Part shown: piece after piece, positions 4,300 to 56,750 of the stretch
Layout: each line of letters starts with the position of its first letter
How positions within the stretch are numbered: the first letter of the stretch is position 1
Assembly: GCA_001643675.2 (NCBI GenBank)
Contig: LSRY02000039.1
Location: 620,001 to 684,000 of the forward strand
Reading direction: 5' to 3'
DNA from: Monocercomonoides exilis PA203
Taxonomy: Eukaryota > Protista > Preaxostyla
DNA: 64,000 nucleotides
Program-made: the position numbers and the translations under genes
Notes under the pieces: model-generated
What the model saw: the letters and a program-made list of their open reading frames with translations, nothing else
What the model was told of the DNA's origin: nothing
Databases searched by the model: none

Positions 4300-5450
4300 G
4301 AGTTTTTGTTCTTTGAGCATCTACCTTCTCTAGTGCTCGCGCTGCTGTCCGCGCTGCAAGCTCCACCGAAGGCTCGTACGCAACAAACCCCACAACCATC
4401 GCGATGAGATGCCCACTCAGCTAGAACAGAACACTGCACTTCCCATCAAAATCAAACGTGATGTTGTGCTCTCGGCAGTTCGAAAAGAACTGTCCGTGCG
4501 GCACACGCGACAGCTCCGGCTGGTAGAACGGCTGCACGATCACAAAGCTGCATGTCGCCTCCGGAGAGAGACAGGCACACGCATGTGCAGAGGCGCTGGC
4601 TGGTCCACACGCCGCCTGAGGAGACACTCTCTCCACACCTGCCACCTGGCGCGGAGAGGCCGACCTGTGTGCCCCGCTCGAACAGCCCTGAGGCCGAGCA
4701 CAGGCAGAATGCGCTGAATCAGAGGACGGAGCACGCACATGCAAAGCGGCTGTGCCACGGCGGCGCGGAAGGAGGTAGTTTCCAGACGCAATCTCGATGC
4801 ACCCCTGCAGCATATACGACATCCACCTGAACGCCGACGACGCTGCCAGCGGGCCCACCGAAAGATCCACCGCACACATCCGCAGCGACTCCCACTCGTC
4901 CACAAACACACAATACGAAACACTAAACACCCCAATCATCCCTTTCCCGTGGCACACTTGCCCAATCGCATACGTCGCATCCCGCAGAGCAATCGACGGC
5001 ACACTTTCCTGCGGCACAACCTCCTCTATCGCAACAAACTCGTCCATCCTCTCTCTCTGCCTGTCCGAGCTCAAATGCAACGTCACTCCATCCGATGCCA
5101 AACACCCACCCCCACCCACACCCACACCCCCTTCTCTTCTCTTCTCTCTTCTCCCAAACAGCCTCTCCCCAATGAACGTGATGCTCATCGTCCCGTCCAG
5201 CTGTATCATCCCTTCCACAACTGGCTTCTCCACGATCAGCTCTCGCTCTGTACACTGCTCCATCAGCTCCTCTTTCACCATCACCATTATAAGATTGCAC
5301 CTCCATCCCCCATTCGCTCATTCTCCTTCAACAATCGCATGCTTCAGATTCACAGGAACACTCAGCAGAAATTTTTCGTCCAGTGATTGGACATCATCAT
5401 CATCATTTTCATCGGCTGCATCATCATAACGCTTTCTTTTATATCACCTG
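4300..5450 (-). pseudogene. IQCH-like (IQ motif containing H) C-terminal fragment
   Basis: PQESVPSIALRDATYAIGQVCHGKGMIGVFSVSY..MCAVDLSVG and FFSNCREHNITFDFDGK recall the conserved IQCH C-terminal region; in-frame stops; paralog at 48600-50045. Confidence 0.55.
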
Positions 5451-15590: not shown

Positions 15591-16373
15591 ACCATTATTT
15601 GTATCAAGTGTAATTGTTGATGGTTAAATAATGTTACTCACTCTGTGATCATCTTGCAAAAATCAATGGAACAGCCATCAGCAGAAGCGTTTGGTGAAAA
15701 GTGATTTGTTTGTTTTTCTTTTGCTTTGACTTCATCTTAATTTTTTTCATCTTTGTATTCTTCGTTATCTTTGTTAAAGCAAAAAGCAGGTGAATCATTA
15801 ATTGAGATTTTCTCAAACTCCACTGCAGCATTGATTGAAGTTAACTTCAAAGAGCTGTCTTTATTTGTTGTGTCTGCTGTTTCCTCTCAGTCACCAAATT
15901 CATTATCAGTGCAAGTCATTCCTCTTTCATATCGCGCACTGAAGCAAATACTTGATCGCTTTAATTTTCTGGATAACTTCCATAAATTTATTTCATTGAA
16001 TTCAGTTTGCAAATTTTGTCAGAAGATCAAATAGTTCGCAATAGCAGTTTGTCCAAGAAAGCTTTCAAATAATGTTTTTCATATCCTAAACTTTGGAAAA
16101 GAATATTTCTAAATAAAATGAAAACGCAAAGATTTTATTTGTTTTGAATTCCAACAGTCAAAAATTATGATGTGAAAATTTCTCAAAAAGTTTTTAGCAA
16201 ACGATGATAAAATAATACTATTTAATTCCTTGTTGCGAGATAATAAAGCTCCAAGCCTTCATGAATAAAATTAAATAAAAATAGGAAAGTTTGAAAATAT
16301 TAATGGGATAGATCAAATGAAAAAATAGAAAGTTATTAACATTGCATTTTCAACGAATAAAAATAATTTTAAA

Positions 16374-19300
16374 TAGGCCTTTGCGACAAGCCGACATTTC
16401 CCGAAGGACCTCGACAAGTCGACCGACAAGACAGTTACAAAATTTTGAATTTTTTGTTTTATATTTTTTATTGAAAAACTCCTTTTTTTTTAATTCTATT
16501 AATTTTTTCAATCAAAATAACAAACAATATTTGATATGAAACTATTTTTTTATCTAATAATTTTCACAAAAAATTACCAAAAATGCTATTAAAATGGGTC
16601 ATCGACAGATCTTTGTCGAGATCAGTCAATCGACAAAGATCTGTCTGTCGAAAGATCAGTCGGTAGAATAGATCAATCTGTCGTATGTGTCTATTTCTTT
16701 TGACTTTTTTTCATAACGGGAATTATTTCTATAACGATTCAATGACGAAAACAATTTTTGATTTTGAATAAAAGGATCATTGAATCAATAGAAATAAAAA
16801 GTTTTTCATGTTTTATATTATGTCACAATTAGTCCATTCCTATTTTTGTTATATATTCCATCTGTTTTTATGTATTACCGAAAAGAATGGAAATATTTGA
16901 ACAAAGTTTTTTTTAGTGTTCCATAATAATAATATGCTTTGAATTTTGCGAACAAACACGATATTTTTGGTTATAGACGAGGAAGACAAAAGAAAGGTGT
17001 GATAAATATCTTTGTTATAATATTTATATACGATTAACAGGAAAAGTTACGAAATGGAATTGATTCTGATAACGATGAAGAATGAAAATAATTTGTGATA
17101 ATCAAAACAGAACAAATGCGGCTTCAAAAGGAATAATTTCTCATCCGAGCAGAAATTGAAAGAAGAAGCGATATCACCGAGATAAGTAGTGTTCAATTAT
17201 TAAACAGGAAATAAGAGAAAGAGAAAGAAGCTGCAAAGGATTAAGAAAAAGAAAGAAGAGCAGGAGCTGAAAACTGAAGGAATAAAAAATATAATTGGAA
17301 ATTGTCTTTCAGCTGTCTTTCTTCTTCTCTTTCTCTTCCTCTTCATATATATCTTCAAGCAGCACATCATTTCAAGTGCTTCAACAGATAAGAGAATGAA
17401 ACAATTTCAATCAAAGATTTCTAAGAAATACCCTCTTCTCAATCCGCCTGTAGATTATGATCCAACATCTAATTCATCTTTTTCCACATCGTTTGAATCA
17501 GTATATGGTTTTGAAGAAAAGAAAAGAGAAAGAAGAAAAGATAAATGCGAAAGTGCAGAAGAAGAAGAAAATGATGAAGAAGATTAAGTAAATGCTTCAT
17601 CTGCCCAAAAGCGATGGAATTGTTAGAAGAAAGAAGCCAAACTGACGTTGAATACAAAGCCAATTTTTGGATATTATTTGGATGGTATGAAAGCTATTTT
17701 ATCTTGTCATTATTATTGTTCATTTCATTTTTTAATTGTGTTCAATATATTTTCATTCTATTTATTTTCATATAATCTTTCTTAATAATCTCCTCTTAAC
17801 TTCTCAGGGATTCTCAACCAATTTGTCTTTGATCCCACCCACGGCGCCTCAAAAAGTGGCATTCAAACTCCTCCTCCGAAGATAATCGAGTCGAAAAAGG
17901 AGAGTTTGAATGCTTCGACTTCTTCTTCCACAAAACTGCTGATGACAAGTTCAGGCATTCCGTGGCTGTCTCTCAAAGAATACGACCCAAACGCAGAGAA
18001 ATCGACAAACCCTTCAAAAACTGCTTTGTCTTCTCCCATCCCATTCACAGCTGATGAAGCCACCTTCCCCTTTTCTGTGTTAACACCTTCCACTGCCCTC
18101 TTTATGAAGGAAGACAACCCACCTCCTCCTCACCCTCTCACACCAGAATATCTCTGCACAACTCCCATTGAAATACCAGAATCTAAATCTTCAGCTCAAT
18201 TTTTTCAATCACTCATCTTCTTCGAATTGATTTCGCCGGAAAGCCAGTTTCCACATCTTCCTGTTTGGGTGAAGACTCCTTTTCTGTTCGTGAGAAGAGC
18301 AACGAAAAGAACAAAAGCGGAAAAACAGTCAGAGACAGAAAGCCGGAGGAAGATGGCGCACTTGTTCCGCTTTTTCAGAAGCAAAAGCAGTCCATTCAGA
18401 TGATAGTGGTTTTTTGAAAAGTGTAATCTTTCATGTTTGGATTCTTTTTTTATAACTTTTTTGCCTTTTAATATTATTTATTTCCTTTTTATTGTTTCCT
18501 TTCCTCATTTCATATCCAGCCACCTCCCTCTACCGATCCCATCTACATTGCCCCTCCTCCTCTCACGCAGCTTCCCCTTGTTCCCATCGCCCCTCTTCCC
18601 AAAGTTCTTCTCAGAAGCACCCGAACTGACGAGCCAGAAGATCACCTCTGCAGCGAATTAACCTTCACTTTCTTTTCTTTCACTCAAAAATGGCCGAGTG
18701 AAAAGACGTTGAGAAGCATTCTGACAGCGCAAGAGTAACACAAAAGCCTGTGCAGCTAACTCGAACAGCAGAAATGATATCCTTTATGAATGAATTGAGT
18801 GATTATCCGTTGGTTTTAGATGAACTTTCTTCTTCTCATCTGGTGGAGATGCCAAAAATGTCTTTCTTCTCCTTCCAAATGTTTGCGCTGTCTCGCTGTT
18901 ACACTCCACCTGGCTATGTGGAGACAGAAGTGGAGAGGAAAAAGAGGGCGATTCTGAGAGAGAAGAGAGAGAGAGAGATGGAAAGGAGAATCACACAAGA
19001 GATGAAAATTATGGAAAGAATGCATTGGAAAGAGGGAGAGGAAGAAGAAGAGATAAAAGAAATAATGTTCAAGTTAGAGATAAAGGCTTGGTTTATCACA
19101 ACACTTCGTATCAGAGCAATCAGCTTTCAATAACAGTTTCAATGCAGTATCCACTTCTGTTTTCGTTTCCTTCCCAGGTTTCACTTTTCACTTTATCTTC
19201 ATCATTATCACATCCACCGCAATCCTTTCATTCTCGTTTTCATCCTTCTTCTTTGCGGTCCTTTAATTATTTTCTGACTGAAATGTGACTGAAACAAATT

Positions 19301-20471: not shown

Positions 20472-20533
20472 GACACTGGTTGATCCTTTCGACCGACATA
20501 GGTTTCCAAGAATTTCCTTGTCGCAAAGGTCTA
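16374..20533. mobile_element. hAT-like non-autonomous cargo-carrying element, 4160 bp
   Basis: TIR TAGGCCTTTGCGACAAG (16374-16390) vs CTTGTCGCAAAGGTCTA (20517-20533), 16/17; perfect 8-bp TSD ATTTTAAA (16366-16373, 20534-20541); CGACA subterminal repeats; empty-site paralog at 1902-2068. Confidence 0.9.
17040..19560 (+). pseudogene. Disrupted hypothetical gene (cargo of 16374-20533)
   Basis: Coding-like ORFs 17396-17587, 17906-18403 and 18750-19133 separated by AT-rich intron-like gaps and stops; no family recognised. Confidence 0.4.
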
Positions 20534-21529
20534 ATTTTAAATTAATTAATTTAATGTTTTCTTTCGTGTTCTTTATGTAAAGAATTTTTTATCGATAATC
20601 CATATCCTTGGAACATGCCAAAAGGATCAGCCAAATAATACTCAATTTAATTTATTTTGAATAATAAGTACAGATATCGCAAAAAAATACCGGATATCGC
20701 ACAAAATACAGGACAAGATCGATATCTCAATAACCGCAAGAAGAAAAATTCTGTCAATTTTCCTTAAAATCCAAATTATCAATAGATGAATTGTGAAATA
20801 ATAAATTATTTCAAGATAAATATTTATTTCAAGATTCATATGGGTTATTTCAAGTTTATTCACTTATTTCAAAATAACCAAGTTATTTTCAGTATGACTG
20901 ACTTATTTTTATTGTTCAAAACCACAATGATTTTTTTAATGTGACTATTCAATTTAATTAAAATTTTCATATATTCAAATTTCAATGTCTCAGTTATGAA
21001 TAAGAACAATATTTGTGAAAGCAATGTTTCAAAGGTGTGAAATTGGAATTAAAAATCTGAATTAACATGAAATTCGAATAGCTTCATTGGAGTTTATTTA
21101 TTAAATGTAATGATGATTATATAAATTTTTGCAATCATTCAAGCGCAAGCCAAACGGAAAATAGAGAAAATGTCGAAAGATACATTAATTTCTTTCATTT
21201 ATTGTCACCCAAAAAATCTTCTAAATGATCTCTTAAAATCAACAGTTCAATTTTGCAATTTATAAAGCTCAAAGCCCTTTTTTATTACTATGATTGCTGA
21301 AAAAGTGAACTGGTCATTTGAAGTTTATTAAAATTATGTGCAATTTGCTTTTGATTAATTAAAAGTGTGTATTCGATGTCAATGCTCAATTACCACATTA
21401 TTTTAAACTGCAGCGAGATGGCACATATGAACAAACAAAGTTAAATGCTTGCATATTCATTGATCTGAATGCAATGTGCAATAATTTGGTTATCTATCGT
21501 ATTTTTATAAATTATTTTCTTTATTTTCA

Positions 21530-29158: not shown

Positions 29159-29233
29159 TTTTTCTTCGTCGAAATCCCATTTCAAATTTCAATATTTTTA
29201 TTGATCTGCAATTTGCAGAAATGCTTTTTTGAT
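29159..29233. repeat. Internal inverted repeat, left copy (partner 34747-34823)
   Basis: ~75-bp imperfect IR with a perfect 23-bp core TTGATCTGCAATTTGCAGAAATG (29201-29223 vs 34760-34782). Confidence 0.75.
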
Positions 29234-30121
29234 ATATCAAGATAATATTTATATGTTGTTGAAGTATTTAATGAGGTTAATAACGATTTCTTCAAATTTC
29301 CACGTTATAAAAAGTTTTCATGATCATTGAGATCTTTTTTAAAGCAAAAAAATTTTTTTGTTGATCTGTTGAGAAAAATTCATGATGAATTTTTTTGAGT
29401 TTGTTGGTTTTCTTTATATGACATTGCAATGTGGAAGAAATAAAAATGATTACAAGGAGAAAAATGCTTGTATATTTGAATTTGAGTATTTTTTCGAAAT
29501 GGAAAAAAGATCAATGAAATGAAAAAAATACGTTAAAAAATAACAGTCGAACACCAATCAATATGACATAAAAAAACAAAAAGTTCTTCATGATATTAAT
29601 CATTATAAAAATTGAAAACAGTCAGAAATTTTCTAATCAGATTCAATAACTTTCAATAAAACATAATTCTATCACATAATCATAAAAACTATCTCCAAAT
29701 GTCAACAAAACGTCAACAATTTTGAACAATAAAAGATAAATAAAAAATCTATACTATTTCAGCAAATTTGTGGTATCAAAGACAATTCCAAACAAAAAGG
29801 AATACTTGTATAAAAAGTTCAAAAACTAACTTGTCTATTTTCCCTCTGTTTTCCATCCACTCAACCCTTTCTGATATTTCTCTTGTCCAAACTCAAAAAG
29901 AACAAATCCAACAAAGAAAAAAGACAGACACAATGACAAAACATCACTTCACACTCTCAACAACTCTCCCTTCCAAAAATCTCACCCAAAGATCAATGAA
30001 TTCCCTCACAACTCTCTTTATTAATGAATCTCGATATATACATAAAAATTCGGGACTATTACCAAGTGAAAATAGGAACATTAAAGGGACAAAAACCACA
30101 AGAAAACAATCGGATTCTAAC

Positions 30122-30249
30122 TGTTGTGCACCTGGGAGGCTGTTCGTCGTATCCAGGTCCGGATAAAGCAGCCCGAAGGCTGCAATATCTAATACGAACA
30201 GTCATGTCCAGCACCCTTCCGATAGAGTACCAGCTAAGCATGCACAACA
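30122..30249 (-). ncRNA. Candidate structured RNA directly downstream of the transposase stop codon
   Basis: ~52% GC island; 9-bp closing stem 30122-30130/30241-30249; 8-bp stem 30140-30147/30194-30201; GCAGCC-UUCG-GGCUGC hairpin (30168-30183); two more hairpins that need G-U pairs on the minus strand. Confidence 0.55.
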
Positions 30250-30258
30250 ACTAGTTTC

Positions 30259-31624
30259 TTAATTAGGGACACCAAAAGAACAATTTTGAGATTCACAAAT
30301 AGAAGAAGAGTCAAGAAGAAGCTCCAATCTCCTTGAAAGAAGATTTTGAGAAGATTGAGAAAGAAGAGAAGAGTTTGATGATGCATTACCAGAGTGAAAT
30401 GACTTTCTTGTCCGTTGCATTTTCTCTTTCATTGTTGAAGATTCGAGGGCAACCAGAGAGCGTTGAGGAAGATATCCAACAGCCGAAGCACAGACAAATG
30501 AGCCCTTGCGCTCAAAATACAAGTAGTCCTTCATGTGTGGAACAGACAATGATGGCCACGAGATTTGTTGAGATGGTGCATATTCTTCAAAGTTCCTCTC
30601 ATGCACAGAGTCATTGACAGATGTTGAAGATGATGAAGAGTTTGATGATGATGTTGAGATGTTGTTCAATTGTGAAGTTGAAGAAGCTGATGTCGAAATG
30701 TTCATATTGTTTTCGAAGAAGTTGATCAAGTCATGAAGTGTGGTGATGTGTTCAGTTGATGGGTTGTTGTTTGTTGCATTCACTAACGCACCAAATTCAC
30801 TATCACAAATATTCTTTCCGTGGTGCTCAGCGAAGAAGTTGAGTTGAGTGTTTTTCTTTTTCAAAAGTTTTGATTGTTTGGAGAGGATGAAGTGAAGAAG
30901 GAAGCGATTTCTGTTGTATGGACCAGAATCGCAGAAGAACTTAAAAGTGTGAGTGTCTGAGAAGAAGTGTCTTTTGATCACAGATTCCAGACACTCAATA
31001 ACAAATCTGTGATCATTTGAAAGGCAGTCGGAGAAGAAGTTGAATGTTCTTTTTATTTGTTGATTATTTCTTTTTTGAAGAGAGATGATTGTGAACTGAG
31101 AAACCTGTTGATAATTGAAGAATTCTTGTTGAAGTTGATTTTTTCTGATAGGGAGTTTCCATTTCTCTTTGAAGTCGAAAACGAAGACTGCTTCTCCTTC
31201 TTTCAGATTGTCGACAGTTGATTGATAATGTTTTCGTTGCATTTCTGCAACAAGACGATGTTGACGAAGAAGTTTGAGTGCATGAAACTCAGCAGAAGAA
31301 AGTCCATTTTTGTTTTGTGAAGATTTGAGTTTATTCTCCAGATAGTCCAACTTCTCGCACATTCCGCAGAGATCCGTTCGTCTTTTCGCCTTGGAGAAGT
31401 TTGTTGTCAGCTTGTAGAAATGGGAAAGAGATACTTTGATATTCGTTTCTTCTGAAAACTCTTTCCATAATTTAGTCTTGGGCTTGAAGATTAATCTCTT
31501 TTCATTGGGAGAAAAGATGCCCGTTTTCTTTCTTTTTTCCTTTAATGCTTCCAATCCGTAGCTTGATGTTATTGATGAAGAGAGTGGAGGAATGGAAGTT
31601 GGTCGATGAGGTGGTGTGATGAAC

Positions 31625-31669
<45 letters not shown>

Positions 31670-34056
31670 ATGATGTTTGAAGTGTTAATGCTTGATGGTT
31701 CAGAAGATAAAGAAAAAGAGGAACCACCAAATTGAATTGTTGAAATCGTTGGTTTTGTTTTTTCTTTGGTATAGAATGAGAGTGATGGAGTGTAACCTTG
31801 TTCGTAAAGATCCTTCCATGCCTTTGTCCAATTTTCGATGTTCAGTTCTGTCACATCAGCATCGTTGCAAATATTCCATGAGACATCGTTTCCTCTATTT
31901 CTTTTGATGACAGCGATATAATGGCCATTTCTTTGATCCAACTGTTTATGAAGAATTTGCCCAACAAAATGATAAAAATACTCTTCTTTATTGTTCTCCA
32001 GGAGATGTTGAAAATTATCATTTGAAAACCCTTTGCAAAACGAACGCTGATTCACTCTATCGGTTTCCATGACGAAGGTTTTTGAAGGTGCAGAGCAAGC
32101 AGTTTCAGTGCATTCGTGACAGATGGCAAGAACCTCTGGAAATGCAACCATTTCCTCCCATCGAGCAGCACAGCATTTCTCTTTGCATTCATCACAATTA
32201 ACATTGTTTTTTCCATCCAAAATTTCTGTTGCAAAAAGTGAAGATAAACCTTTGTGATGTGATGATGTATTGATGATAACACTGCAACAGGATTCATTAA
32301 AATGATTAGAGACTTTTTGACATTTTTGACATTTGAAATGAGTAATGAGCACTGGATTGAAGGTATCCTTTTCAAATATCTTATTATCTTGAAGAAGTTG
32401 ATGAAGATTTTCAAATGCTTCTGTCACATTCTGTTGCTGCCTGCTTCTGTATCCGCAAAATGTTTCCCATTTGTTGATCAGTGATGGAACCCACGAACGC
32501 ACTGATGAACCATCTTTGGCAAGTTGCTGACAAACACTCAAAACACGAGAAGACATTGTTTTTATTGCTGTTTGCTTTTTAAATAAGAATGGTTTTTGTG
32601 AGGTTATCGAAGAGAAGCATTGAAGAAGAGATGAAAGATAGCATGTGTTTCCTAAATTTATTAATCCTTTTATTGATGTTGATGAAGAAGAATCTGATGA
32701 TATAATTTTTGAAGAGGTAGATGAAGAAGGAGAAGAATTTGAATGAGGAAAATCTGTTTGATTGTTATTCATCGTGATCTGTGCAGTATTTTCATGATGC
32801 GAAATAACATTCTCATCGGCAGGTGTGTTATGTTGAGACGAATAAGTGTTGTTCTCTTTTGAAAATGATGAAAGAAGATTTTGAAATGCTTGTGGTGGAA
32901 TTAGAGTCGGTGAAGTGGCATATTCAATTAATTGATCACTCACCCACACATCATCGTTGAAAAAGGCAGTTGAAGATTCTTCAATAGAAAAAGAATTTAT
33001 ATTTTCTTTTTGTTTCTTTTTGAAAGATGAAGAGGATGAGGATGAAGAGGAGGATGAGGAGGATGAGGATGATGAGGAGGAAGATGAAGATTTCGAAAGT
33101 TTTGCTTTGAATAATTTGTGAATTGGAATTGGTGAAGGAGACGAACAACGTCTATGTTGTGATTTATTTGTTTTTCTTTTTGTTGAACCCCTTTCTCTCC
33201 TAATTGGAGCACTGATTGGAGCATCAACAGCTTGAGATGGAGAAGAATTTGTTGAAGAAGAATTTTTTTCTGTAACGACATTTGATTTTTTGTTTTGCAG
33301 AGATGATATTGAAGGAAAAGAAGATTGTTTTTTTCTTTGAGATGAATTTTCTGTGATGATTTCTTCATCCCACGCTGCTTCGTCAATAAATCTCGCACAG
33401 TCAGGCTCAGCTCGCTGCTTTTTCTTTGCTGACTGAAGCGAAGTTGAGGCTTCAGTTGAATGGGCTAACATCCAGTTGTTGCCCTTTTCCCAGTCCTGTT
33501 CATTTAAGCCTAAAATAAACAGAGAAAATCACAAAAAAAATATTAAATAAATACAAACCACTTTTGCAAGACGGAAGATGAGGTTTTTGAGGCTGAATGA
33601 TAAATCCTTGGTTCTTTTTGAGCGTTTGCTTCGCGTAAATTAATTTTCCTTCTGTCACATCATATCCATAGTTTTGAAAATCGGATAATAATGTGTTTCG
33701 AGACAACGCCTGCAGCAATGTTGTCTGAGTGTGCAATGGAGCGTTATTGTACACCACAGACAGGTCTTCCAGCAGCTTTATGTGATATTCTGTTTTAAAT
33801 TAATAAATAATAAACAAATAATAAAGAAAGAAAAATTAACAGAGAGTTGAAATGACATGTTTCACTCAATCCATAAAATAAAAGCCAAACCATTCAAAGA
33901 CTTCAGTAAATCATTAATTACTGAAGATGATTGCCTATAGTTGAAAAAGAGATAGATATGCAATGAATCAACGTCATCTCCACCAATTCGTTTTATTTCG
34001 TTCCATAAAACTTTGCATCGAGAATTAAGAGTTGATTGAGGTTTTGAAAAAGACAT
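30259..34056 (-). CDS. Sola2-like DDD transposase with inserted USP/peptidase C19 deubiquitinase domain; join(30259..33509,33559..33789,33891..34056), 1215 aa
   Basis: Two GT-AG phase-1 introns join in frame. USP Cys box GLINLGNTCYLSSLLQC, QQQNVTEAF, CxxC pairs, His box ILH..GHYIAVIK..WNICND. Transposase motifs TDLCGMC, VFDFKE, FCDSG, FFAEHHGKNICDSEFG. Confidence 0.88.
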
Positions 34057-34746
34057 TTTTATTGAAAAAATTTTTTAATTATGGTTTGATGATATTAGAG
34101 ATTTATATGCTGTTGTTTGAATTTATAATACTTTTTTATTAATTTTTTTAAATTTTTTTTAAGATTTGTGTTCATTCTAAGAAAAATTGGCAAATAAAAA
34201 AATACAAAGAGCTTCCAAAAATGAATTAATAATATTCAAAATTATCCTTCTGAAAATTTCCGAAAGTTCAAAACTAACATGATTTTTATCTCCTTTTCCA
34301 CATCATCAGGAAAAAACATCAACATTAAACAATAAAATAATAATTCTTTTAAAAAAATGATTAAAAATATTCAATAACAAGAAATTAGCATCTCTATCAC
34401 AACTAAAATATTGTTTAAATTCATTATTCATTTGTTAATAAAAAATTTCACAGCAAAAGAATAAATGGAAATATTTTGAACAGTTATATTTAAAAATATT
34501 GAAAAATTTTTTTCCAAAAAGTTCTTTTTTCAATGTTGACAAATAAAAAACAAATAAAATTTATTTCATCGATTGAAAATTTAAAATTAAAAATTTTTTA
34601 TTTAATTAATGTTTCATAAAATATTCTTTCTGAAAATTGCTCAAGTTGATCTTTTCGATCAATAAAAGATTGTAATTATTTGGCAATTTGCAGAAATCGT
34701 TTTTGCATATATGGATCTCTTCTTTATATCATTTGTACCATTTACA

Positions 34747-34823
34747 ATCAAAAAATTATCATTTCTGCAAATTGCAGATCAACAAAAAATACGAAATTTG
34801 AAATGGGTTTATAACAAGAAAAA
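34747..34823. repeat. Internal inverted repeat, right copy (partner 29159-29233)
   Basis: See left copy; a third partial copy GCAATTTGCAGAAAT at 34683-34697 forms a local inverted repeat with this one. Confidence 0.75.
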
Positions 34824-35109
34824 TAAAATTTGATTATCTTTTGAAAACCTTCGTTTATTGAGGAAACTGCATAATATATAATTCATATCGTAATTTACTA
34901 CTTCTTCTGTTATATACTTCAAAAGATACGCCCAATTCACTTCTCTTCCATTTGACATAAATAATGCTGGTTTCTACTTCACTGCTTCTCGTTAGAAGCA
35001 ACAGAATATAAATTTTTCTCAATTTATTCGAAAATAAGCATATTTTGTCTTTTTCTTCATCTATTACACCTCCTTCCTACTCTCCCTCCCAAGATATTCA
35101 CGTTCAATC

Positions 35110-38100
35110 ATCTTTGATCATGTTGGCTGTGGGAAGTCAGCGCTTCCAGCGTCCATTCTGGGAGAGACTATCAGTTTGGAAGGGAAAGGTTGTTTGAGGG
35201 GGAAAGTGGCATATGTGTCTCAGGTGTGTAAGTTAGAAAGAATATAAGAAAATAAGTTATTATTTATTATTATTATTATTTTAATAACTTTATCTCTTAT
35301 AAACATTATATTCATCATTTGTTTCACTGAATTTATATTCTTCTTCTTCTGACATGCATCATATATCTATTCCTCTGTCATATCCGTTCAGATTCCCCAC
35401 ATTTTCAACGACATTATCAAATCCACATCCTCTTCCACACTCCCTTTGACCCCGTCCGCTACGCTCGTGTCATTCAAGCATGTTGTCTGGAACTAAACTT
35501 GGACATTCTTCCTGGCAGAGACGAAGCAGAAGTGGGCAAAAGAGGATACAACCTGTCGGGCGGGCAGCGAATGAGGATAGCTCTGGCGAGGGCAGTCTAT
35601 TCATCGGCTGAGGTGTTTCTGTTGGATGACATTTTGGCGAGTATCGATGCTCATGTGGGACAAGCGCTGGTCATCAAATGCATCAGCCAGCTGCTGAAAG
35701 GGAAGACCGTCTTGTTAGCGACACATCACACGAAATATCTGCCTCACTTTGACACGGCCATCGCGATGGAAGAGGACGGGAGGATCAGAAAGATAGGCAG
35801 GGCGGAGGAGTTTAAGGGGATTGTGAAGGAGATGGTGGTGATTGTGAAGGAAAAGAAGGAAGGAAGGAAGGAAAGGAAGAGGAGAAGGAGAAGAAGAGGA
35901 GAAGTGAGGAGAAAGAGAAAGAGAAACATTGGGAGATAATTTTGAAAACAATTGTGAGAAGATTAAAGATGCAAATGACATTCCTTCTCCATCATCATCA
36001 TCATCTTCTTCTTCTCCATTCAACTTGACTCACTCAAACACTTCACCTTCTCCACCCATTTCACCCATTTCACATTCACCTTCACATTTATCTTCTTCTT
36101 CTTCTTCTTCAATCATTCAAACTCCGATTTCACTTTCTCCTTCTCCATCCTCTTCTTCCTCATCCTCATTCTCTTCCTCTTCCTCTTCCTCCTCTCCTTC
36201 TCCTTCTCCTTCTCCCTCTGAACTGGGGCATCTGAAGGAGTTCATTGACATGGAGGCTGATTCTGTATCTCTCTCCTCTGTTTTGTGGTATTTCAAGCAT
36301 GCATCGTTTTTCCTGCTATTCTTTGCGCTGCTGACGATTGCACTGAGCAACGTTGCTCAGAATGGGAAGAGCGCTGTGCTCAACACGTGGACTGCGAAGG
36401 ATGCACAGATGGAGCAGATGAACAGGATACTCAATGGACTTGGAGGAGAAAAGAGAGGGGAGGATGAGAAGAAAAGAAAAATGAATTTTGAACAAAACAT
36501 TGAATGATTCAGTTATGTCATCACCACCACCATCATCTCAAGAAAACAATCACAAAAATAGTGACAATTCAAAAACAAGAACATCAAAAAATTCACTTCA
36601 GAAAAACTCCTTCAAGCACAAAAAGCAGAAGAAGCAGAAGAAGAAAATGTTTCTGTTCTCCTTTCTGAGCCGTTTCAATCTTTCGTCAAGTTTCTTATTC
36701 TTTATCCACATCATCATGAAATTATTCTTGTCGCTCGGCGAGATTCTTGTGAATTTGATCACCACCCGCTTCCGGATGCAGTCTGCCCATGCCATCAAGA
36801 CAGAAGTGTTCTCAAAGCTTTTCCACGCAAAGATGAGCTTCTTCGACACCACACACACCAGCATGTTGTACAGAAAACTGAATGGTGTGAACCCCATCAG
36901 CAACAGCGCACTCCATTCCTTCACTGTCACTGCCTCCTCCCTCGTGAAGCTGCCCTTGGCACTGGTGGAGATACATTCATCGATTCCAACGCTACTGCTG
37001 CCTGTTGACCTGGCAACGAGTTCGATGGCACTGATCAGCCATTCAACGTCCCTAGCAAAGCATCACATTTACCGGTCGTTGGTTGCTGTCCGAAGCGACT
37101 CAGTGCTCTTTTTCAAGCAGGTGGCAAAGCAGCTGCAACGTTTGGTGAACAGCAAGATGAATACGCGGGCACATTACAAGAAGCCGCTGTTGATTCACAC
37201 ATGCAAAACAATGTCATTGCAGTTGTGTGGCCAGCTGTTTCCGGAAATACACAGAAACGAAAAGAGGGATGAGAAGCTGTTTAAAAGAACGTGTGAGATC
37301 GAACAGGAGGTGTCGTCTATGGCTCCGTTTGGCTCGATTCGATTGCAGACAGCAGAATGAGAGACAAGAATAGGAGTGATTTAAGAGAGGGAAATGGGGC
37401 TGATAAAGCGATTGCTGCAACTTCTTCTTCTTCTTCTTCTTCTTCTATTTCTTCTTCTTCTCCTTCTCTTTCTTCTTCCATTTCTTCTTATTCTTCTTCT
37501 TCTTCTATTTCTTCTTCCTCTCCTTCTTCTCTTTCTTCTTCTTCTTCATCTTCTTCTTTTTCTTCTTCTTCAGCTTCTACTTTTTCCTCGTAGCGTCGAT
37601 TTTTTTGAAACAAATTCATGACATAAGAAGACCAGCAGATAAAAAGGATGAAGCAACAGCTAAAATGAAGAAGGAAAAGACAATATTTCATTCTCCCACC
37701 AGATGTGTTTGAGGCGCTGCCGCTGTTTGCAGAGTTTCGGATGGTGGAGCGGTATGCGAAGAATCTGGAGAAAAGGAAGAGAGAAAGAGAGAGAGCGAAA
37801 GAGAGAATGAATGAATGAGAGAAGAGAAGAAAGAAGGATAAGAGAACTGATTAAGATGAGGAAGGTATTGAAGCCTGAAAATGATAGAGATTACAATGAT
37901 GATGAAAAAGAAAATAATGTCAAAGCAGAAGAAAACGAGAGTTTATCATTGATTAGAAAAGATTCTTTAAAGGAACCGAAGAAAAATGAAGATAGTGAAT
38001 GCCTTTCCGACAGCTTCATCATCAGTGATGAAGTAGAGCGAAGAGAGAAGAGGCACAAACAGAGAGAGAAACAGAGGTTGATGCGAAGGTATTACCAGGC

Positions 38101-41152: not shown

Positions 41153-42833
41153 ATGAATTTTTGGTTTCATGTGAAATTGGAGAGAAGAATAAAAAATCAC
41201 TACTTCGTTTTTTATTTATTTTTGTTTTATTGAAACGAGTATAAATCTCAAAATTGCAATAGACTCTGTTATTAAACTCTTTTTTTACTGTATCTCTGAG
41301 TGGAAAATTAGTTTTGTTTATGTGTTTTAAATAAAAAGAAGAAAGTTTTTTGATGGAACGACTTTTTTTTAAAAAAATGAAAATTTCATGTCACTATATC
41401 GAAATAATCATCAAATATTCATTTTTGTATTGAAAGATATTTTTCACTTAAACTTTTTTTATTTAAAAACTTCATTCACTCTGTATACATAATGATAAAT
41501 TTATAACATTATCTAGGTTTGAAATATTTTGGAAAATAAACCGTCATGAAATGAAAAATTTATTTATAAATCGGAGCAATGTTTGGATGTTAATTATGTT
41601 AAAAAATTGAATATTAATTAGAAGAACAGATGTTTATCTGAAGAAAAATCAAACACAGATTTATTCTCTCCAATTAACGTGTTTGCAGTTTATTATTTCC
41701 GAACATCTGATGAAACTGCAAAAAAGTTAAATTTTTAAGGTGTGCATGCTTCTTTTGGCACGCTCCAAAACGATGAAAATGACTGAATAACAAATTGATA
41801 ACTTGTTATGGTGTTGTTGAAGATCAATAATTGTTTTTTTTGTGTTAGAATATAGATAACAATAAAACAAAACAAACAAAAAAGAGAATGACGATAAATT
41901 GCAACAAGACAGAAAAAATTATAAAACTTCATTGTCTATACTCAATAAGACTGACTTTTTTTCAAAAGAATTTGTAAAACTCAAAAAACCATTGAAAAAC
42001 TCGAAATAAGTGGGTTATTTCGAAATAACTTCATTATTTCAAAATTTTTCAAATATTTCACATTTCATCTAATACAAACTCAATTGATAAACGAGACTTT
42101 CAAAATAGCTTCATTTGTGCTCAGAAAAAATTATAATAAAAATTTCGGAGAAATAGGATTTTGAATCTCTTCATGATTTTCATTATAATTTTTTCTGAGC
42201 ACAAATGAAGCTATATTGAAAGTTTTGTACATTAAATGAGTTTGTATTAATGAGATGTATTTTGAGGAAAATTGTCAGAATTATTCCTCTTGCAGTTATT
42301 GTGAAATCGAACTTTGTCCGGTATTTTGAGCGATGTCCGGTATCTTATGCGATATCTGTAAGTGAGAGAAGATTCACCAACACACAGGAGTTAACATTGA
42401 TAATCATTATTTAAACGATTTTCATGATCGACAAATAATAAATTAAAAAGTTTTTTACGAATAATAAACATTTTCAAATGTTTAAAATCATCTTCTTTCT
42501 TATCATTAATTAAAAAACAAAATTGGATTTTCAAGGAAAACCCCAACTTTATTTCCTTTTCTTAACCATAGAAATAAAGTCTAGAAAACAATTAGTTTGA
42601 AAACACTAAAAAATTTATAATTCAGAGCTTATTTATGAAAAAATTACAAAATGAATATAAATATAATGGGTGTGATCAAATGAGGAACAGATTTATTCCA
42701 CTTTTACCCAGAAGTTTATCAATTTAGAATAATAAGTTTTCCAAATATGAAGAATAATGGGAAAAAACTTTCTGCTCCCATAACAATAGTATAATTATTG
42801 ATCGTTTTCTATAACCAAAATAATAAGTGTGAA

Positions 42834-48599: not shown

Positions 48600-50045
48600 G
48601 GCGACTGAAAAGCAAAGAAAAGACAGCAGCGAGGGATGAACAATCATCATCATCGTCATCGGAGCATACGATTTACTGTTCAGATAAATGGGGAGTAACT
48701 GCATCATACACGTTTTCAACAGTGATGAACTATATCAAGAGGCAGATGCTGATTGTTGGATCTGAGGAAGGTGGCATTTATTCCAATAATAAGAAGTTGT
48801 AACCGAGAGCACAACAGGAGCTGTAATCATATGGAATGGACTTACACATCTGGTTGTGCTGTTTGGGTGTTATGTGCATGCACATGATGTGGCATTTTTT
48901 GCTATGCTCTAAGTGTAGCTTTTTGAACCGCTTCCGTCGCTTGCAGTGTCGGAAGGTACGAATTCGGGGGGCAAGCGGATCTTTGCTGCGGAGGAAGTGA
49001 ATGCGTTCCCGTCGATCTGCGATCTGTTTGACCTGTCGCTGCAAATATGGCGATCGCCGCAGTCGAGGTGTGTGGTGGTGAAGCTGGACGATGAAGTGAT
49101 GGGGCGAGGGGTTGCAGTGTGTGAAGTGTGAGAGATTGTGGAGAAGGGACTGTCGGCAGCGGGGCTGAGGATGGAGAATGTGGTTCTGTTGCCTGCAGCG
49201 ATTGCGCTGGCGGTGCTGGAGGAGCAGGAAGAGGCAAAGGAAGGAGAAAGGAGAGGCAAAGAGGGAGAAGAAAAGGGAGAAGAAGAGGAAAAAGAGGATG
49301 GAGGGAGAGAAGGAGGTGATGGGAATGAGGAGAAAGGAGGCTATCCGGCAGCTCACAGAAAGTTTGTGGAGAGAATCAAAGAGAACCAGGGGAAGCTGGA
49401 AGAAGCGATGGTGCCTCTGGTTGTGGATGCTCTTGGGCTGAGTGGGCTGAGATTTGTGAAGGTAGAGACTGAGGCGGGTGCAGACAAGCAGCATTCAGTT
49501 GAACCAGAAGTGTGCAGATCTTCTCCATCTGATGGCATCCAACAGGAGAACAGGAGAGCAGAAGAAGAAGTAGCAGACGGGTCTTTGGGAATAGCTTCAG
49601 ATGGAAGAGAAGAAAATGTGGGGAAAGATGAGGAACAGGTGGAAATGGCTGCGAATGATTTGGGGATGAATGAGGAGTCAGGGAGAGAGTGAAGTTCGAA
49701 AGATTTGGAGAAGGAAGAAGGAAAAGAAGAGGAAGAAGAAGAAGAAGAGGAACAGATTCTGGATGTGGAATCGCTGCTGTGTGTTCCTGCGCATCCGGAG
49801 TGTGTGACGCTGGTTGACGAGAGTGCGTATGGGAGCTGGCGGGACTATCTGGTGACGATGAAGGTGACGGGGGCGCTGGTGGAGCTGTGTGCGGAGCGGG
49901 AGCGGATTGTGGGGAAGCCGGTTGTGGAAGGGACGATACATCCGGACGGGACGATGAGCTTCACGTTTATTGAGAGAGGCTGTTTGGGGGAAGAGAGATG
50001 AGAAGAGAAGGGCGCGGGGGAGGGTGTATTGCATCAGATGGGGCA
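48600..50045 (+). pseudogene. IQCH-like fragment (middle region), paralog of 4300-5450
   Basis: SGGKRIFAAEEV, VVKLDDEVMGRGVAVC; ELCAERERIVGKPVVEGTIHPDGTMSFTFI matches EQCTERELIVEKPVVEGMIQLDGTMSITFI; stops and frameshifts. Confidence 0.55.
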
Positions 50046-53940: not shown

Positions 53941-54421
53941 AATTTTTCAAATTTCATTTCCTCAAACATTTACATTATTTTTGTTTTTCTTTTTTAATCA
54001 TTTCGCAAAACGGTACAAAAATTTATTTTCATATGTTTGCTTTAAGTGATTTGTTAGGGTTATTATTTAACCCCCACCTTTTTTTTTATTACAAAAGTTT
54101 CTTGTCCCACTTTTTGAAATAATAACTTGATTTTTTGTATAAAAGGAATCTATATTGAATTTTCAAAATGCATTTTAAAATGAAGCCAATTTCTTATGGG
54201 GTTAAAACCTTCCATCAAGCTTCCACGAAAAATTGGTTGGTTTCAAGGTGTGAAAAGCCACTTTGTTCATTCAAAATATTTTTTTTATTAATTTTTTGAA
54301 TGAAATTCAATTTGTTTTTAAAAAAAATGAAAATAAGATCAAAAATTAAAAATAAATAATAAAAATACTTGTTGAAGAAAAAAGAAAAGCAGGGCAGATA
54401 ATATTAAAACATGTCATGTAA

Positions 54422-55172
54422 CACCAAAAATTATTCAAAGTCGAAAAAGTTGCAAACGAAATCGAAAAACTTTCAATCGAAATAGAAAAACTTTAATGCG
54501 AAGTCGAAAGTTCGAAAAACTTCAAATTTTCAAAAAATTGACAAAAATCAACAAAAGTCAAAAAAACATTGTGATTGTTAAAATATCGATGATATTTGTT
54601 ATTTTAATGATTTTTCATTTTTTTTCCGATATTTTTCTTTGCTTTCTTTTAACCAATAACAAATTTAAAATTATAAGAGAAATTCTGACAAACTTTTATT
54701 TCATTTCAATTGAAAGCACTCTTCTTCACAGAAAATTTACCATAGAAAATTTTTATTTTTTTTTCCTATTTTATGTGGAATGAAGAATACATTATTGACT
54801 CTCTTATTAAATGTTTTTCATCACAAACAACTCATTTCTTATTGAAGGAAACAAATGCTTGAAGTTTTGTTTTGAGTTTATTTATGAGTTTTTATGGTTC
54901 TAAATCTTCAAAATTTGCAGAAATCAACAATACAAACATTGCTCATAATATTTCCAATAACAAAAGAATATTTTCATCTTTTGTGGAATTCTTTTTATTT
55001 AACGTATATTTATTATGTGAAATTTTCGATTTCGATTGAAAGTTTTTCGATTTCGTTTGCAACTTTTTCGACTTTGAATAATAATTTTCGACTTAGAATG
55101 AAACTTTTTCGACTTTGAATGAAAACTTTCGACTTTGAATGAAAGTTTTCCAACTTTGAATAATTTTTGGTG
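54422..55172. mobile_element. MITE (~750 bp) with ~60-bp TIRs and ~21-bp tandem subterminal repeats, nested in the pogo element
   Basis: CACCAAAAATTATTCAAAGTCGAAAAAGTTGCAAACGAAATCG.. is mirrored at 55029-55082 and 55152-55172; TTTCGACTTTGAAT array on the right; right flank TA, left flank TAA. Confidence 0.8.
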
Positions 55173-55174
55173 TA

Positions 55175-56750
55175 CCTTTTCAATACAGAAATTATAGGAA
55201 CAAACTTGAACGGATGGCACACATTGTGTATGATGGCTTCGTCAGGATCACAGACACCATCAATTCTATGCAATTCAGCTACAGCAGTATAAAAAACGCA
55301 GTTCGGGCGTAGCGAACCAAAAGGGAACTTGGAAAACCAGGGAGACCGCAGGCAATCAGCAAAGAGAAGGAAAAAAACAGTCATGGATGTTATCAAAATT
55401 GATTCCATTTGTGGGAGCAGTTTAACAATGAAGAAAACAAGAGAATTGGTTTGCTCAAGTTTTTTATTGTAAAAATAACATTTTTTCTTTTGATGGAAAA
55501 TGTTTTAAACGATGCAAAAAAAGAAAACAAGCCACATATTTCAGTTTCAAATGCTGCGGCGTACGGGTTTTTGAAGCGGCATCCAGAGTTGAGGAAGAGC
55601 AAACCAAAAAGTTTAGACATAAATCGTCTGGCTGTGTCATGCAAAACTGTGATGAAGCCCTGGTGTCAAATGATTACAAAATTACACGAAAAAAATCACA
55701 ACAAACATTTATTAATATTGAATGTTGACGAATCATCATTGCGTATACCTTCTTCTGCCAATATCGAAGTTATCCATTTATCTTGACAAAGGGCTGGGTC
55801 TGCAAAGAAGCACAAAGAATGGACAAAGCAACACTTGTTGCTTCCATTACTGCATACAGTTATTCATTTCCCTGCATCATTCTCTGTCCAAGTGTTAAAC
55901 AACCGTACGAACTGATGCCTCTTCTCTCTCCAACACTGGACATCTGTCCAAATTCTTTTAAAAAGTTCCTTTTGATGAATTATCAAATAAAGAAAAAATT
56001 TCATATTTTGTTTAAATTTCTGTTTTCACTCATGAAACTTCGCTGTCATGAAAACAATATTATGACAATGTTATAATTTCCATTTTGGAGAAATATCTTG
56101 TGTGGGAACATAAATATGATCGAAATTTAAAATTCTTATTTTTATATGAAAATTAAACAAAAGGAACTTTTCAAGAAAATTCAGACATCCAGCCTGACAA
56201 AAGTGGCTGGATGGACAAGCAAAACTTCAAGAAATATACAGAAACAGTTCTTCTCCCTTCCATCGTTAAAAGAAGAAAGCACATTTCATTAAAAACAGAG
56301 AAATGTCTTCTTTTCATCGACTCTCATCCTTCACGCGGTGATCCTTCAATTTGGAAAACTTAATCAGAAAATAACATTAATCTCGTGACATTCATTCTTC
56401 ACAGAACTCATTTATCTCAACCACTCGACAGAGGAGCATTTACAACTCTGAAAACTTCTCTTTCTTCATCATTTGATGTTCCATCATCCACATCATCGTC
56501 TTCTTTGAGAAAAGCACTTGTCGACGTGCTTCCTCAAGCAATTCACTCCGCTTTCACTCCTTCTGTCATTAAAAAAGCTTTTAAACAAAGCGGAGTTCTT
56601 CATAACACGTTCGGTCCGGTTCTTCGCGAACAACCTGAATCATCAAAATACCCTCTTCCTTCCCATCGTAACCGTTTCGATTATTTTGGAAAGTTAATTA
56701 CAAAAAAAGAACTTCTTGACGATTGGGAAAGATTTTTTTGGAAGAAATGA
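55175..56750 (+). pseudogene. pogo/Tigger-like transposase pseudogene (HTH + DD35D)
   Basis: GKPGRPQAISKEKE, GFLKRHPEL, LNVDES (D1), SGWMD, FIDSHPSR (D2), HLSQPLD (D3, 35 residues after D2); stops and frameshifts; probable ATG at 54411 separated by the MITE. Confidence 0.85.

Follow-up and report, generated by a model that had tools for sequence, protein, structure and literature searches.

The host element and its transposase gene

The window, that is, the whole 64,000-nt stretch of Monocercomonoides exilis PA203 DNA analyzed here, carries on its minus strand a spliced gene whose last exon contains the open reading frame 30259-33471 (Table 1). Judging from motifs and a predicted structure, its product is a Sola2-type DDE transposase with an inserted USP domain. 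The invariant residues of the core match, by eye, the Sola2 alignment in PMC3627910 (supplement S10) and are closest to the DFa-2/PPa-1 type, with which the DxCxxC, DFKE, C/SDxG, and FFxxxHGKxxCD motifs are shared. The structure model, which covers the core and not the N-terminal part, has a pLDDT of 83.5 and matches the Hermes, IstA, and Mos1 transposases as well as retroviral integrases (best Z 12.3, rmsd 2.8, 142 aligned). Pfam recognizes only UCH in the transposase, in agreement with the original prediction that a RuvC domain is lacking, the N-terminal part lying outside the structure model.

The element differs from known Sola2 transposons in its USP domain and in its ends, which are long imperfect inverted repeats rather than TIRs of 12 to 21 bp, and the 4-bp TSD was not located. 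No TSD with matching termini occurs within 60 nt of the repeat core, and the element ends are therefore presumed only. No other long ORF was found in the element. Four proteins, named by their source as M. exilis, are 91 to 93% identical over the C-terminal 431 aa, and a second protein search gave ten entries from M. exilis, whole or fragmentary, and one JGI protein; thus, the gene is very likely present in multiple copies in that species. The representative protein search returned 614 relatives at E ≤ 0.001. Blattamonas and Streblomastix also have Sola2 elements.

The USP deubiquitinase lies in frame inside the transposase, and its C-terminal half diverges far more than the DDE core among copies. 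A USP-bearing Sola2 element is not described in the literature searched by title and the start of the abstract, with subscription journals mostly uncovered. A distant Sola2 relative, protein P0012, has an N-terminal stretch that we take to resemble an OTU protease motif, with no such match in Pfam; these sequences hint that deubiquitinases may have been captured repeatedly by Sola2 elements.

Table 1. Features of the element and of the predicted RNA (positions in the window)
Feature	Position	Strand	Details	Basis
Sola2-type transposase gene	30259-34056	-	Exons 34056-33891, 33789-33559, and 33509-30259; 1,216 aa, no internal stop	Exon model
USP/UCH ubiquitin peptidase domain within the transposase	31834-32667	-	Cys, His, and Asp motifs present	Pfam PF00443, E 3.4e-15
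DxCxxC motif and DDE/integrase-fold catalytic core	30562-31500	-		Motifs, predicted structure
Left arm of long imperfect inverted repeat, presumed element end	29159-29330			Repeat search
Right arm of inverted repeat	34660-34823		82% over 78 nt in best part	Repeat search
Predicted structured RNA, whole unit	30099-30261	-	P0 to P5 and candidate pseudoknot, from the stop codon onward	Fold, copy conservation
TAA stop of the transposase	30259-30261	-	First three bases of predicted helix P0	Same end point in homologs P0001-P0004
Tail outside the predicted fold	30085-30098	-	U5 run; no variant listed	Copy tables
Short GGGAC-containing repeats either side of the RNA	30052-30272		At about 30053, 30073, 30084, and 30264; 3' ones differ among copies	Window sequence, copy tables
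P0 (predicted)	30099-30261	-	7 bp, 30255-30261 with 30099-30105; pair probability about 0.4 to 0.76; no variant seen	Fold
P1 (predicted)	30117-30254	-	15 bp, 30240-30254 with 30117-30131; 3 G-U; variants 30123 and 30242	Fold, copy tables
P2 (predicted)	30208-30233	-	10-bp hairpin; 4 G-U; variants 30229, 30231, and 30208	Fold, copy tables
Candidate pseudoknot	30109-30223	-	6 Watson-Crick pairs between P2 loop 30218-30223 and bulge 30109-30114; no variant seen	Fold
P3 (predicted)	30140-30201	-	8 bp, 30194-30201 with 30140-30147; closes inner junction	Fold
P4 (predicted)	30168-30183	-	6 bp, UUCG loop; loop variants 30175 and 30176 in 3 to 4% of depth	Fold, copy tables
P5 (predicted, ambiguous)	30150-30165	-	6-bp hairpin	Pair probabilities

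Extent and predicted fold of the RNA

The original prediction had placed a compact structured RNA at 30122-30249, just past the transposase stop, as an island of about 52% GC in AT-rich DNA. Location and composition both agree with the sequence: the stop codon lies 9 nt away from 30249, and GC is 0.516 in this stretch, against 0.34 and 0.38 on its flanks. The full unit predicted here is larger, at 163 nt, and lies 770 to 940 nt inside the presumed element end as given by the inverted repeat. The GGGAC repeats on either side (30052-30091 and 30264-30272) do not occur elsewhere in the element at one mismatch, and their number and spacing differ among copies; they may bind proteins or be what an insertion left behind.

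The minus-strand minimum-energy fold is predicted to form two nested three-way junctions with a candidate 6-bp loop-bulge pseudoknot, all six helices nesting without internal mismatches. Every helix listed earlier was recovered, namely, a closing helix of 9 to 10 bp, the 10-bp G-U-rich hairpin, an 8-bp helix, the UUCG hairpin, and the hairpin at 30150-30165, but the first and the last of these need qualification. The closing helix, first given as 9 bp, is actually 15 bp long (P1), with a further 7-bp helix (P0) that includes the stop codon outside it. The hairpin at 30150-30165 (P5) is part of the minimum-energy fold, but its pair probabilities are only 0.35 to 0.60, and a longer UUCG stem could form at its expense. 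In an alternative fold without P5, 1.1 kcal/mol higher, 30153-30157 are freed to pair with 30131-30135, and a second pseudoknot of 5 bp may be envisaged there on speculative grounds. The first pseudoknot has a firmer footing in the model: an 11-nt bulge separates P1 from P0, and six of its bases exactly complement the 6-nt P2 loop, which is the longest possible pairing among the unpaired bases. Any such pairing arises with a chance of 0.029 when the unpaired bases are shuffled (1,500 trials), and this loop-bulge geometry arises with a chance of 0.0015.

Folding energy is unremarkable on its own and shows no strand preference, and hence is weak evidence. The first-described stretch folds on the minus strand at -49.2 kcal/mol (z = -3.24), and 0 of 200 shuffles are as good; similar z values, however, are not rare in the window, where the tile with the RNA ranks 13th of 638 (15 shuffles per tile). 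The preference for the minus strand claimed initially holds for G-U pairs, with 9 of 52 pairs on the minus strand compared to 3 of 47 on the plus strand, and for the G-U-type variants described below, but not for energy, which is equal or better on the plus strand (z = -3.64 for the same stretch; -3.95 plus compared to -3.00 minus for the 163-mer). What sets the RNA above chance is not its energy but how little it differs among copies and what pattern its variants follow.

Variation among genomic copies

Contigs from four DNA runs (X1 to X4), all of one sample, were placed on 29900-30500 and on 30075-30275, and variation was read from the pile-up tables. The former table holds the best 40 of 101 variant rows and the latter all 8 rows; in the outermost 35 nt or so at each end of 30075-30275, rare variants can escape detection. 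Single-base deletions at 30153, 30159, and 30161 were seen in X1 only and were excluded as likely errors. Over all runs, nine substitution sites fall in the block 30085-30262. In X1, with both tables combined for the inside and outside counts, 8 of 178 nt vary inside the block compared to 73 of 423 flanking nt (P = 1.1e-5), and X2 gives 8 inside and 68 outside (P = 4e-5). A conservative core (30110-30240) is still conserved (P = 0.0013), and among the 39 variant places in the best 40 of 101 rows, 3 lie inside and 36 outside (P = 0.001). Most of the signal stems from the downstream flank (P = 3e-5). When only the coding tail serves as the comparison, the best-supported rows give 3/178 and 12/238, a difference that is not significant (P = 0.11). 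Common variants occur at 30263-30265 and none at 30243-30262 among the variants listed, and the 5' edge of the conserved block is the stop codon.

Most of the RNA's variants spare its predicted pairs. Two common ones turn a G-C pair of P1 into G-U (30123, 45% of depth; 30242, 59%), and two in P2 keep the pair as well, from U-G to C-G (30229, 99.7%) and from G-U to A-U (30231, 4%); a fifth, at about 1% of depth, breaks the terminal pair of P2 (30208), and the remaining 4 of the 9 sites are unpaired. Thus, pairs are kept via a G-U state on the minus strand at 4 of the 9 sites, where the same pairs on the plus strand would toggle with A-C mismatches; by itself this four-of-four pattern has P = 0.06. 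The two common variants that weaken G-C pairs, 30123 and 30242, cost 5.5 and 4.5 kcal/mol on the plus strand compared to 1.9 and 2.0 on the minus strand. The junction strands are almost invariant. P0, P3, P5, and the pseudoknot have no variants and hence are not tested by copy variation, and no two-sided compensatory change was seen among the nine substitution sites. The variant pattern, together with the 9 G-U pairs in uninterrupted helices, favors an RNA on the transposase strand.

The RNA also follows the element. On one side, contigs run on into the transposase tail, and on the other they enter related repeats; an independent SINE- or MITE-like insertion is rejected on this ground. Only 0 to 8% of the contigs leave into unlike sequence, so the RNA moves as part of the element. 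The middle of the RNA owes all its depth in X3 and X4 to a single contig of 133 nt, which covers 30130-30262 with 2 differences. At 30163, X2 and X4 each have one contig that exits the RNA into unrelated AT-rich sequence, probably a deletion derivative. Identity of the annotated copies to the window is 79 to 87% over the last 60 aa, 91 to 97% in the DDE core, and 60 to 66% in the C-terminal half of the USP domain. With so few variable sites, the RNA behaves like the catalytic core and not like a spacer.

Could the conservation be real and yet have a cause other than RNA, such as a DNA-level site or a GC-rich inverted-repeat block homogenized by gene conversion or a recent sweep? The unexceptional z, alike on both strands, would fit such a cause, as would the small number of variants from one sample and the lack of double compensatory changes. 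Against it, the variants inside the block are all transitions (8/8, compared to 30/73 outside in X1; P = 0.0015, with base composition as a partial confounder), each of the four stem variants is of the G-U and not the A-C type on one strand, and the six predicted helices nest cleanly from a 5' edge that coincides with the stop codon. We regard a non-RNA cause as rather improbable. Copy conservation and G-U-type variants thus back the proposal of a transposon-encoded structured RNA on the transposase strand, and what lies here is a real, copy-conserved, and likely RNA-level element in an unusual Sola2-USP transposon.

Known RNA classes and possible functions

The RNA fits none of 4,227 Rfam families. 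Rfam searches of 2.5 kb around the locus gave 3 chance matches, none of them on the RNA, and no U1 at E ≤ 5; the 211 nt of 30070-30280 gave no U1 or other structural match at E ≤ 10, only 2 chance matches to lncRNA fragments on the plus strand at about 10 bits, and the window as a whole gave 0 matches at the gathering score. Against phages (20 records) and plasmids (9 records), blastn returned chance matches of 19 to 29 nt only (best E 0.6). A covariance model (R1), built from the single sequence and hence weak for distant kin, found only itself in the window and 11 other loci; elsewhere it reached no more than 8.7 bits across 6 loci and 9.7 bits across 28 loci from a pattern scan. No homolog of the RNA was found near the 11 distant transposase relatives, which come from metagenomes at 21 to 37% identity and are mostly truncated or spliced (L001, L002, and L010 end before the stop codon), and no transposase relatives were found in viral contigs. 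An RNA of this kind is likewise not described in the literature covered by the search of titles and abstract beginnings, in which subscription journals were mostly uncovered. The fold is uncatalogued, and so far a single element family, in one sample, is known to carry it. A second Sola2 family of the same species is represented by protein P0006 (MONOS_18616), 41% identical; its 3' region is where a diverged homolog of the RNA might first be expected.

At a probability of about 0.4, we read the RNA as a cis element that sets the lifetime or fate of the transposase mRNA at ribosome termination. This reading by analogy starts from the observed position, orientation, conservation, variant pattern, and linkage to the transposase end and adds the predicted fold and pseudoknot. 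The element would be transcribed within the spliced mRNA, at the start of its 3' UTR, given that splicing occurs in this gene and that the mean length of host 3' UTRs is 312 nt (PMC8767320). In the predicted fold, the UAA stop is paired within P0 and opens its 5' strand. The footprint of a terminating ribosome opens nearby downstream pairing, and a ribosome at this UAA would melt P0 and part of P1, likely the outer part. The melting would reshape the bulge that carries the pseudoknot partner of the P2 loop, so that translated and untranslated messages would fold differently, and the folded state would shield or mark the 3' end, as a dENE does with a different fold. The precedent is found in the triple-helix stability elements known as ENE/dENE, such as that of the rice hAT element TWIFB1, which are structured cis elements behind DNA-transposon transposase genes (PMC13541005 and PMC7583470). 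The RNA itself is not an ENE: it lacks the two-sided, U-rich internal loop with which a poly(A) triple helix would form, its runs of at least four U lie only at the edge of the bulge and P0 (30103-30106) or in the tail, and its predicted multijunction pseudoknot fold pairs the stop codon. From the RNA to the inverted repeat there is just one AAUAAA, at 30017-30022, and about 91% of depth carries a changed form of it. This hints at unusual 3'-end handling but is statistically weak, since by our estimate chance alone would place about 1.5 such hexamers in 755 nt. The present evidence does not separate stability control from the functions of a ribozyme or a partner RNA.

A self-cleaving ribozyme of an undescribed class, cutting the transcript past the stop and so generating its 3' end or restraining expression, is unlikely. 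It would share with small self-cleaving ribozymes (hammerhead, HDV-like, twister, pistol, hatchet, and twister sister) its size, nested junctions, predicted loop-bulge contact, and mobile-element setting, and a compact multijunction fold with one good and one possible pseudoknot, almost invariant junction strands, and the altered AAUAAA all fit cleavage. However, that hexamer is weak evidence for the reason given above, and none of the known classes matches. Hammerheads have a core of CUGANGA and GAAA at a three-way junction, which is absent within one mismatch on either strand. HDV-like ribozymes form a nested double pseudoknot with a conserved L3 and a catalytic C; a descriptor of this fold gave only two overlapping G-U-rich fits, in effect a single one, that start in the variable coding tail and lack the L3 consensus. 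There was no match to the Rfam models of twister, pistol, hatchet, or twister sister or of any other ribozyme. Self-cleaving ribozymes are, moreover, mostly tied to retroelements.

It is improbable that the RNA serves as a partner of the transposase, processed from the mRNA or bound in place, in an RNP through which the enzyme is regulated or steered to the source copy. Such an RNA might be what remains of a Fanzor module: Fanzor1 is found within some Sola2 elements, as Sola2-Fanzor1 chimeras (PMC3627910), and conservation of the 3' UTR across copies revealed a Chlamydomonas Fanzor RNA (PMC10530073). The strong conservation per copy fits selection in cis, and a structured, copy-conserved RNA 3' of a transposon ORF recalls the omega-RNAs (fRNAs) of Fanzor/TnpB, an analogy drawn in the original prediction. 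The analogy is not supported: the neighboring ORF encodes a DDE/integrase-like core and no other long ORF accompanies it, the RNA lies well inside the presumed end and does not overlap it, and the sequence 3' of the RNA is homologous among copies, so that no flank-derived, copy-variable guide stands beside it. Nor is there a complementary match of at least 8 nt to either inverted repeat.

Stability control, our preferred reading, would offer a new fold that couples termination to mRNA fate, and a ribozyme or a transposase partner would add an RNA step to cut-and-paste transposition. The documentable structured RNAs of eukaryotic DNA transposons are ENE/dENE stability elements and Fanzor guide RNAs, and the RNA here, which is small and has natural variants, fits neither. 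In a bolder version, which we hold to be doubtful, a eukaryotic cut-and-paste transposon would supply a functional RNA of its own. This RNA, a double-pseudoknot ribozyme of a new class or one that binds the transposase, would be switched by translation termination and tie each transposase to its source copy; such a tie would explain why the RNA is nearly unchanged in every copy.

Two further alternatives carry very little weight. A signal for stop-codon readthrough or recoding that extends the transposase would suit a predicted pseudoknotted structure directly 3' of the stop and a frame that is open for 18 codons and then long again past one TGA; a readthrough product is nonetheless very unlikely because the common variant 30123 makes codon 47 a stop, and the variants show no codon phase and no conserved domain lies downstream. 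Eukaryotic SECIS elements have an AUGA...GA kink-turn with an AA loop, and the minus strand offers only a lone AUGA at 30205, followed by a helix and then CC instead of GA, with no Rfam match. That the RNA is a U1 snRNA or other host noncoding RNA, captured and remodeled as a decoy, is scarcely credible: the three loosely U1-like words quoted in the original prediction do occur in the order given, the second at the top of the 10-bp hairpin, but the third is mostly paired in P4, the whole sits in an mRNA-sense fold, and of the features that define U1, a 5'-terminal ACUUAC and an Sm site, the former, already described as not intact, is absent within one mismatch and the latter is absent from the minus strand, in line with the absence of a covariance-model match.

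Other repeats and structures lie elsewhere in the window. The strongest z (-6.9) belongs to a fold-back of about 200 nt at 42060-42258 with a near-perfect stem of about 40 bp, and sequence near it is repeated at 2077-2165 and at about 12400, in the manner of a MITE. Further palindromic, inverted, or dispersed repeats are found at 55945-56187, at 54421-54512 with 55083-55173, at 5121-5368 with 49774-50020, and at 1903-2084 with 16272-16374 and 20532-20619. Just right of the element, an ABC-transporter-like gene begins on the plus strand (about 35100-37400), its signature motif identified by eye.
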